A stretch of DNA of 32,432 nucleotides from Escherichia coli. GTDB lineage: Bacteria > Pseudomonadota > Gammaproteobacteria > Enterobacterales > Enterobacteriaceae. Below are positions 23,830 through 24,614 of this stretch, piece after piece (the stretch's first letter is position 1; every line of letters begins with the position of its first letter). Position numbers and translations under genes: made by a program. The notes under the pieces are model-generated. The model was given only the letters and a program-made list of their open reading frames with translations. It ran no database searches and was not told the origin of the DNA. The DNA is taken from assembly GCF_003334255.1 (NCBI RefSeq), contig NZ_QOWU01000058.1; one strand, given 5' to 3'.

Positions 23830-24614
23830 TCACTTTATTGAATGAGGTAAAAACAACTGACATCCGGCTCGCTGATAACGCTGTGCAATAGTCTCAGGTA
23901 ACCCGCTGTCACTGATGATCGTTTTAATACATGATAGTGTTGCTACAGCATGCGGCTCAACGGCATCAAATTTTGAGTGATCGGCCATGAGAATAACTTC
24001 ACGCGAGCGTTGAATAATCCGTGTTTTCACCCCGACCTCAAACATGGTGGCATTGGTGATCCCCGTCTCCAGCGACAGCGCATCGCAGGAGATAAACGCA
24101 CGTTCTACGGAAAAGGCATTGATCATCTCCAGCGCCAGACTCTCTCCTACCGAAAAATAACCTGGGCGAATCAGTCCTCCGATAATGTAACTTTCCACAT
24201 GGGGAAAACAGCCCAGTTCATTGGCGATTTTAATGTCGTTGCAGATGACCTTTACCCGCGCATCGGCCAGGCATTTCGCCAGTTCAAGGCAGGTTAGTCG
24301 AGAAAAAAGCAGTCGCCATCTTTGATCATTGTTCGGGCAAGGGCAGCTATTTCTCTTTTCGCCACAGATTGCAATGTACGTTTCACGTCGAAGACGTACT
24401 CTTTGTCGTCTGTACTGTCGTCGAAGTCCAGGCAACCGTGACCGCGGATCATGCCTGGATACTGGTTGACAATATACTGGAAATCACGACGGACAGTCGC
24501 TTCCGCATAGCCAAAAAGCTCCATGGCCTGCTGTGTGGAGAGGTGACGATGTTGCCACAGGTAGTGCAGCATCTGTTTGATACGGTCAGGTCTCTGTTGG
24601 CTCATCAGAAACAA
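23830..24614 (-). pseudogene. sgcR: DeoR-family regulator of the sgc operon, split by a frameshift
   Basis: The N-terminal HTH part (24294-24614; MSQQRPDRIKQMLHYLWQHRHLSTQQAMELFGYAEATVRRDF...DGDCFFLD then stop) and the C-terminal effector part (23830-~24300; ...STCLELAKCLADARVKVICND...) lie in different frames and join only with a small indel near 24294-24300. Confidence 0.7.

Follow-up and report, generated by a model that had tools for sequence, protein, structure and literature searches.

Whether the DeoR-family regulator SgcR is still made is a question raised by the sgc PTS operon in a 32,432-nucleotide stretch of Escherichia coli DNA (contig NZ_QOWU01000058.1), referred to below as the window. 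A preliminary description of the window, made from the letters only, had placed the HTH-encoding 5' part and the effector-domain 3' part of the regulator gene in different frames, and both the open reading frames and an alignment with K-12 confirm this arrangement. We ask here what caused the break, whether it belongs to the organism or to the sequencing process, what is left of the protein, and what its loss could mean for the PTS genes of the operon.

Organization of the sgcR Locus

The gene lies between sgcE and yjhI, in the same gene order as in K-12, and its sequence is near-identical to that of K-12 sgcR. It is the ortholog of K-12 sgcR, and the name first given to this DeoR-family gene is borne out by synteny as well as by identity. 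sgcR is encoded on the minus strand and starts at the ATG at 24605, as annotated in K-12 and by PGAP. Of the span initially assigned to the gene, 23830-24614, the lower end stands, whereas 24614 reflects a TTG start in a mechanical ORF listing and has to be replaced by the ATG. The features of the locus are as follows:

23830..24605, minus strand: sgcR pseudogene, whole; 776 nt vs. 783 nt in the wild type, assigned from synteny and 99.2% identity including the gap
24294..24605, minus strand: remaining in-frame 5' ORF; 103 codons (M1-D103) and a new TAA at 24296-24294
24294..24605, minus strand: content of the 5' ORF; HTH_DeoR (residues 8-65), a linker and the first 24 residues of DeoRC
24303..24308, minus strand: T6 run just upstream of the junction; the sole site at which -1 slippage or an added U could bring the frames together again
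24295..24296, minus strand: deletion junction; CCGGCTC missing between both positions, from alignments and a junction-specific 50-mer search
23830..24294, minus strand: out-of-frame 3' remnant; wild-type residues 107-260 and the original stop, with no further substitutions relative to K-12

In the mechanical ORF listing the 5' ORF extends from 24614 to 24294, and its product of 103 aa reads MSQQ...KDGDCFFLD*. The 3' part occupies the -1 frame, which is open from 24435 down to 23830; it reads ...LLFSRLTCLELAK... and, from ...LLFSRL onward, TCLELAKCLADARVK...LPHSIK*.

A 7-bp Deletion Truncates SgcR at Asp103

A four-way alignment shows one gap in the window sgcR relative to K-12 MG1655 and ATCC 11775, of exactly 7 bases, CCGGCTC. 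The wild type (K-12, ATCC 11775) reads CTCGACT, then the heptamer CCGGCTC, then AACCTGCC, and the window reads CTCGACTAACCTGCC, as does the Symbioflor 2 genome G1/2. Across the junction the sequence is diagnostic of the allele (GACTAACC for the deletion, GACTCCGGCTCAACC for the wild type). When the sgc-yjh segment (12.9 kb) is aligned globally with K-12, the junction falls between window positions 24296 and 24295, and besides the 7-bp gap only 4 SNPs are present over the entire segment. Alignment with K-12 sgcR had been proposed in the preliminary description as a way of checking the reading of the frames; the single 7-base gap that it returned leaves the frame truly broken. The few nucleotides suspected to be missing between FFLD and STCLELAK, near 24294-24300, had been placed accurately.

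The deletion hits codons S104 and G105 and part of S106, with loss of residues S104, G105 and S106, and creates the sequence GAC TAA at the junction, so that SgcR ends at Asp103 of 260. This truncation is close to certain. Residues 1-103 and 107-260 are identical to K-12 SgcR (WP_000082780.1, YjhJ, 260 aa), and the orthologs of E. coli and Citrobacter are full length, showing that the frame is disrupted relative to intact orthologs. The unchanged 3' remnant fits a recent event, but carries little weight because the whole segment is so K-12-like.

The heptamer CCGGCTC is present as a single copy in the wild type; the gap cannot be shifted, has no flanking microhomology or repeat and sits outside any homopolymer. 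A phase-variable switch at sgcR was considered as well and rejected, as there is no tandem repeat or homopolymer at the indel; the single-copy heptamer and the lack of flanking microhomology exclude phase variation.

The Deletion Is Shared by Several Genomes

The preliminary description had left room for a sequencing error, which would mean that sgcR is intact in the organism and was broken only in the reads or in their assembly. In its favour, other truncated sgcR products in public data (P0018, P0029) lie at homopolymers, and some of the assemblies concerned also have fragmented neighbour genes, resembling platform error. A T6-to-T5 frameshift, with a product of 119 aa, is found on 28 contigs in public collections and in none of the 5426 complete E. 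coli genomes. An A4-to-A3 frameshift, with a product of 85 aa, is found in four assemblies (L006-L009). Three of these four (L006-L008) have fragmented neighbour genes too, which suggests long-read homopolymer errors, and in L009 the neighbours are intact and the allele may be real. Recurrent real inactivation of sgcR is thus not established, given the absence of the T6-to-T5 form from complete genomes and the possibility that the A4-to-A3 form is partly artefact. In contrast to these cases, a loss of 7 bp outside a homopolymer is no typical platform error, and its distribution can be traced.

sgcR is present in 1669 of the 5426 complete E. coli genomes (~31%; megablast with an 881-bp query). 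Three matches are 100% identical over 881 bp, and all others start at 99.2%, spanning 888 bp of subject sequence. A 50-mer with the junction at its middle, which cannot seed on wild-type sgcR, matches exactly three of the 5426 complete genomes, those of the Symbioflor 2 strains G1/2, G6/7 and G8. Their sgcR pseudogene has the same junction as that of the window, with 100% identity over the 881 bp, and public annotation flags it in all three strains, with the PGAP label 'frameshifted' for H4P46_RS22100 in G1/2 and H4P50_RS22035 in G6/7. Symbioflor 2 consists of six strains from one healthy donor, which have been kept separately since 1956 (PMC4358396). The exact 103-aa product is furthermore on record in 166 contigs from NCBI, ENA and Logan (CAM3145524.1, CUK13578.1; P0016) and in 249 index blocks. 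A separately assembled, and in this respect independent, ENA metagenome scaffold of 41 kb matches 6312 bp of the window, with the junction among them, at 100% identity.

The window itself adds a further observation of the allele, as it is not identical to any of the genomes with which it was compared. It is without the IS2, IS1 and ISEc12 insertions of G6/7 (sites at ~196-208, 3143-3152, and 11511-11516). Downstream of the ISEc12 site, 3 SNPs in 20.8 kb distinguish it from this genome, and an 8.4-kb block upstream of the site has 8 further mismatches and one gap; from G1/2 the window differs by 1 SNP over 12.9 kb. Positions 32354-32432 of the window correspond to an IS1 terminus, with 100% identity to the IS1 copy of G6/7; G6/7 has no such element at that spot. 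Because of these differences in IS content, SNPs and the terminal IS1, the window represents a fourth, slightly different genome of the lineage.

A 7-bp non-homopolymer loss that recurs across platforms and projects points to an inherited allele, and we reject the error reading as extremely improbable. The inactivation of sgcR in the window is, with high confidence, a genuine inherited loss-of-function allele that arose via the 7-bp deletion. Symbioflor 2 strains G1/2, G6/7, and G8 belong to the small natural lineage marked by this allele, which is an ordinary lineage-specific pseudogene, already flagged in the RefSeq annotation.

Recoding at the Junction

Could the two frames still be joined during expression? 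Since the -1 frame is open across the T6 run (24303-24308), a continuous protein would result if the ribosome slipped by -1 there or if RNA polymerase inserted a U; the recoded product would be a 258-aa SgcR with LDSGS replaced by SRL. The register of the run is C TTT TTT, instead of the X XXY YYZ of a slippery heptamer, and the RNA downstream of it is no more stable than shuffled sequences (88 nt, -20.8 kcal/mol, z = -1.05; 27 of 200 shuffles as good). Efficient transcriptional slippage usually needs runs longer than six T. Moreover, the two-frame arrangement occurs in only 3 of the 1669 complete genomes with sgcR and arose from an intact gene, which argues against a conserved recoding site, and even the recoded protein would be without part of a conserved loop of the sensor domain (see below). 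We regard rescue of SgcR by recoding as hardly credible, and continue from a protein that ends at Asp103.

Predicted Properties of the Truncated SgcR

Wild-type SgcR matches two Pfam domains, PF08220 HTH_DeoR at residues 8-65 (E = 1.5e-21) and DeoRC at residues 80-236. The window encodes HTH_DeoR unchanged and in frame. A contiguous in-frame DeoRC is absent: only residues 80-103 precede the TAA (24 of ~157 residues), and the rest lies in the -1 frame. On the protein level, the frame shift caused by the 7-bp deletion and the TAA that immediately follows it would end translation at Asp103, after the first strand of the sensor domain. The protein would then consist of that strand, the linker and the winged-helix DNA-binding domain, with the rest of the sensor domain untranslated. 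With the deleted codons, the conserved D-x-G-[ST]-T motif is also partly gone; in SgcR it is the D-S-G-S-T loop that opens the sensor domain, and LDSGST is kept in full-length SgcR orthologs, including that of Citrobacter. In the DeoR family, the C-terminal domain is where the sugar-phosphate effector binds, and it is also responsible for oligomerisation. As this domain is mostly untranslated in the window, we infer a loss of function; judged from its domain content, the truncated SgcR is most probably inactive.

Translational restart was considered as a source of a useful C-terminal fragment and rejected, as the 122-aa ORF that gene callers begin at a GTG (V139) would encode no DNA-binding domain and would start only after a third of the sensor domain. 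No Shine-Dalgarno sequence was seen upstream of this GTG.

The 103-aa fragment might instead retain some activity through its HTH alone, either as an effector-blind, weak constitutive repressor or as a small regulator with an altered role. The fragment contains a complete HTH_DeoR, for which the SrlR, DeoR and AgaR models still give scores; its sequence is unchanged, and the close spacing of 16 nt to sgcE has been kept. The absence of further mutations is, however, uninformative, since the whole 12.9 kb has only 4 SNPs relative to K-12. Members of the family such as DeoR and GlpR act on repeated operators as oligomers that are held together by the C-terminal domain, and isolated HTH domains are usually poor binders. 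As the fragment has largely lost that domain, we consider residual activity very unlikely, and the reading of the allele as a loss of function is retained in what follows.

The sgc Operon Around sgcR

The six genes that precede sgcR in the operon are listed here in order of position:

24622..25254, minus strand: sgcE (ribulose-phosphate 3-epimerase family); intact, stop 16 nt before the sgcR ATG
25266..25697, minus strand: sgcA (PTS IIA); intact
25828..26634, minus strand: sgcQ (BtpA family); intact
26647..27960, minus strand: sgcC (PTS IIC); intact
27972..28250, minus strand: sgcB (PTS IIB); intact
28247..29368, minus strand: sgcX (M42 metallopeptidase family); intact, first gene of the cluster

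SgcX, SgcB, SgcC, SgcQ, SgcA and SgcE share 100% protein identity with K-12 and have no internal stops, which bears out the initial impression of an otherwise intact operon. The proteins of the downstream genes yjhI, yjhH, yjhG, and yjhF are also identical to those of K-12, again with no internal stops. The seven sgc genes are co-directional (sgcXBCQAER); because sgcR is the last of them, its lesion cannot be polar on the PTS genes. The cluster is located in the KpLE2/leuX island, an accessory island (2026 transcriptome atlas, PMC13343008).

Two repeats were observed in the intergenic regions. The 130-bp spacer between sgcQ and sgcA contains a perfect 10-bp inverted repeat with a 5-nt loop at 25800-25824 (GGGGATAAGC...GCTTATCCCC). 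In the same spacer, the sRNA ryjB has been placed on the opposite strand (PMC5797941); neither ryjB nor any other RNA in the sgc region gave an Rfam match at gathering thresholds. A 10-bp palindrome, TTCACGTGAA, lies at 29447-29456, ~80 nt upstream of the sgcX ATG, and is a candidate operator only, as ~0.4 palindromes of this kind are expected by chance in 430 bp. A search for an SgcR operator, which covered repeats in the region before sgcX, in the spacer between sgcQ and sgcA and in the sequence that follows sgcR, returned only short matches at chance level, and a promoter and terminator scan around the operon stayed below or at shuffle expectation.

Possible Consequences for Regulation

What the loss of SgcR would do to the operon depends on what SgcR does. 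The closest curated NCBIfam families are SrlR (121 bits, cut-off 350) and AgaR (117 bits, cut-off 260), both sub-threshold, and no SgcR-specific model is among the NCBIfam models matched. SrlR and AgaR are repressors; FucR, a DeoR-family activator, is also among the matches, at 82 bits. SgcR appears in a list of DeoR-family or hypothetical transcription factors (PMC4797297) and is counted among hypothetical transcription factors elsewhere (PMC6055005). A literature search found no paper that tests SgcR function or mentions the 7-bp allele.

Expression of the operon has been described in several studies. sgcXBCQAER has been handled as one transcription unit that is weakly repressed by SlyA (PMC5797941), and sgcX is preceded by a mapped constitutive RpoD promoter (PMC3946193). 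The transcriptome atlas describes a K-12 module sgcABCEQX that is up 16-25-fold on some nitrogen-containing slow-growth substrates, and sgc deletion mutants show no growth phenotype; the Sgc iModulon presented there consists of sgcABCEQX, without sgcR, and the accessible text names no regulator for it (PMC13343008). An induction of 16-25-fold in K-12 makes a specific regulator of sgc plausible.

If SgcR represses its own operon, as SrlR, AgaR, and DeoR do theirs, the sgc PTS genes in this lineage would be expressed constitutively and independently of an effector, under global control only. By analogy with these relatives, the chances that the allele amounts to the loss of a specific repressor, with effector-independent sgc expression as a result, appear about evenly balanced. 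As FucR is an activator, loss of sgcR could also silence the operon rather than derepress it, and if SgcR does not control the operon, nothing would change.

A more far-reaching reading is that SgcR is the repressor behind the 16-25-fold induction, and that the null allele, by making the sgc PTS constitutive, confers an advantage in colonisation or substrate use and is adaptive in a human-gut lineage. If this were true, the lineage, to which three of the six Symbioflor 2 probiotic strains belong, would carry a regulatory knock-out instead of a case of neutral decay, and the allele could serve as a tool for finding the sgc substrate. We consider this unlikely, and keep to the ordinary lineage-specific pseudogene as the description of the allele. 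By itself, the deletion has little significance, being one more pseudogene of this kind in an accessory island. Its small practical value is that of a natural sgcR-null in well-documented probiotic strains of risk group 1, in which it can be tested whether SgcR controls the sgc PTS.

Other Features of the Window

Several features of the window stand apart from the sgc operon. At 12857-17021, on the plus strand, mtnK, mtnA and a gene for L-fuculose-phosphate aldolase form a 5'-deoxynucleoside DHAP-shunt cluster and are found, together with a GRP sugar transporter gene, beside yjhU; the genes of the cluster were identified by mapping to the G6/7 annotation. This cluster has been stated to be previously not identifiable in commensal E. 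coli (PMC10441430). It is present in the window and in the Symbioflor 2 genomes G1/2, G6/7, and G8, which come from healthy human faeces.

An IS102 RNA (Rfam RF00124, 63 bits; gathering score 46) is matched at 5505-5741 on the plus strand, immediately upstream of, and overlapping the start of, an Ag43/Cah autotransporter ORF at 5685-8606. Mapping to the G6/7 annotation also identified an intact YeeU-family antitoxin gene at 11561-11929 (plus strand), followed at ~12019-12117 (plus strand) by only a short remnant of a CbtA-family toxin gene, so that the antitoxin is orphaned.

Comparison With Known Systems

The sole solved relative of SgcR that is found by sequence is the C-terminal domain of E. 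coli DeoR (PDB 7l6l), which matches SgcR residues 82-242 with E = 1.8e-9. SgcR FFLDSGST aligns with lfFDcGTT of this structure, and both proteins start the sensor domain with FxD-x-G-[ST]-T, the motif that is interrupted by the deletion. DeoR is a distant paralog of SgcR, with another effector and other targets.

A closer parallel to the allele itself is gatR::IS1 of K-12, in which the DeoR-family repressor of the galactitol PTS is said to be naturally inactivated and the gat genes to be constitutive, as reportedly described by Nobelmann and Lengeler in 1996. Like the sgcR allele, gatR::IS1 is a natural knock-out of the DeoR-family regulator of a PTS operon, and can serve as a model for the derepression predicted for sgc. 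The two differ in the lesion, an IS insertion in gatR vs. a 7-bp deletion in sgcR, and in the status of the phenotype, since constitutive expression has reportedly been demonstrated for gat, whereas it is predicted for sgc.
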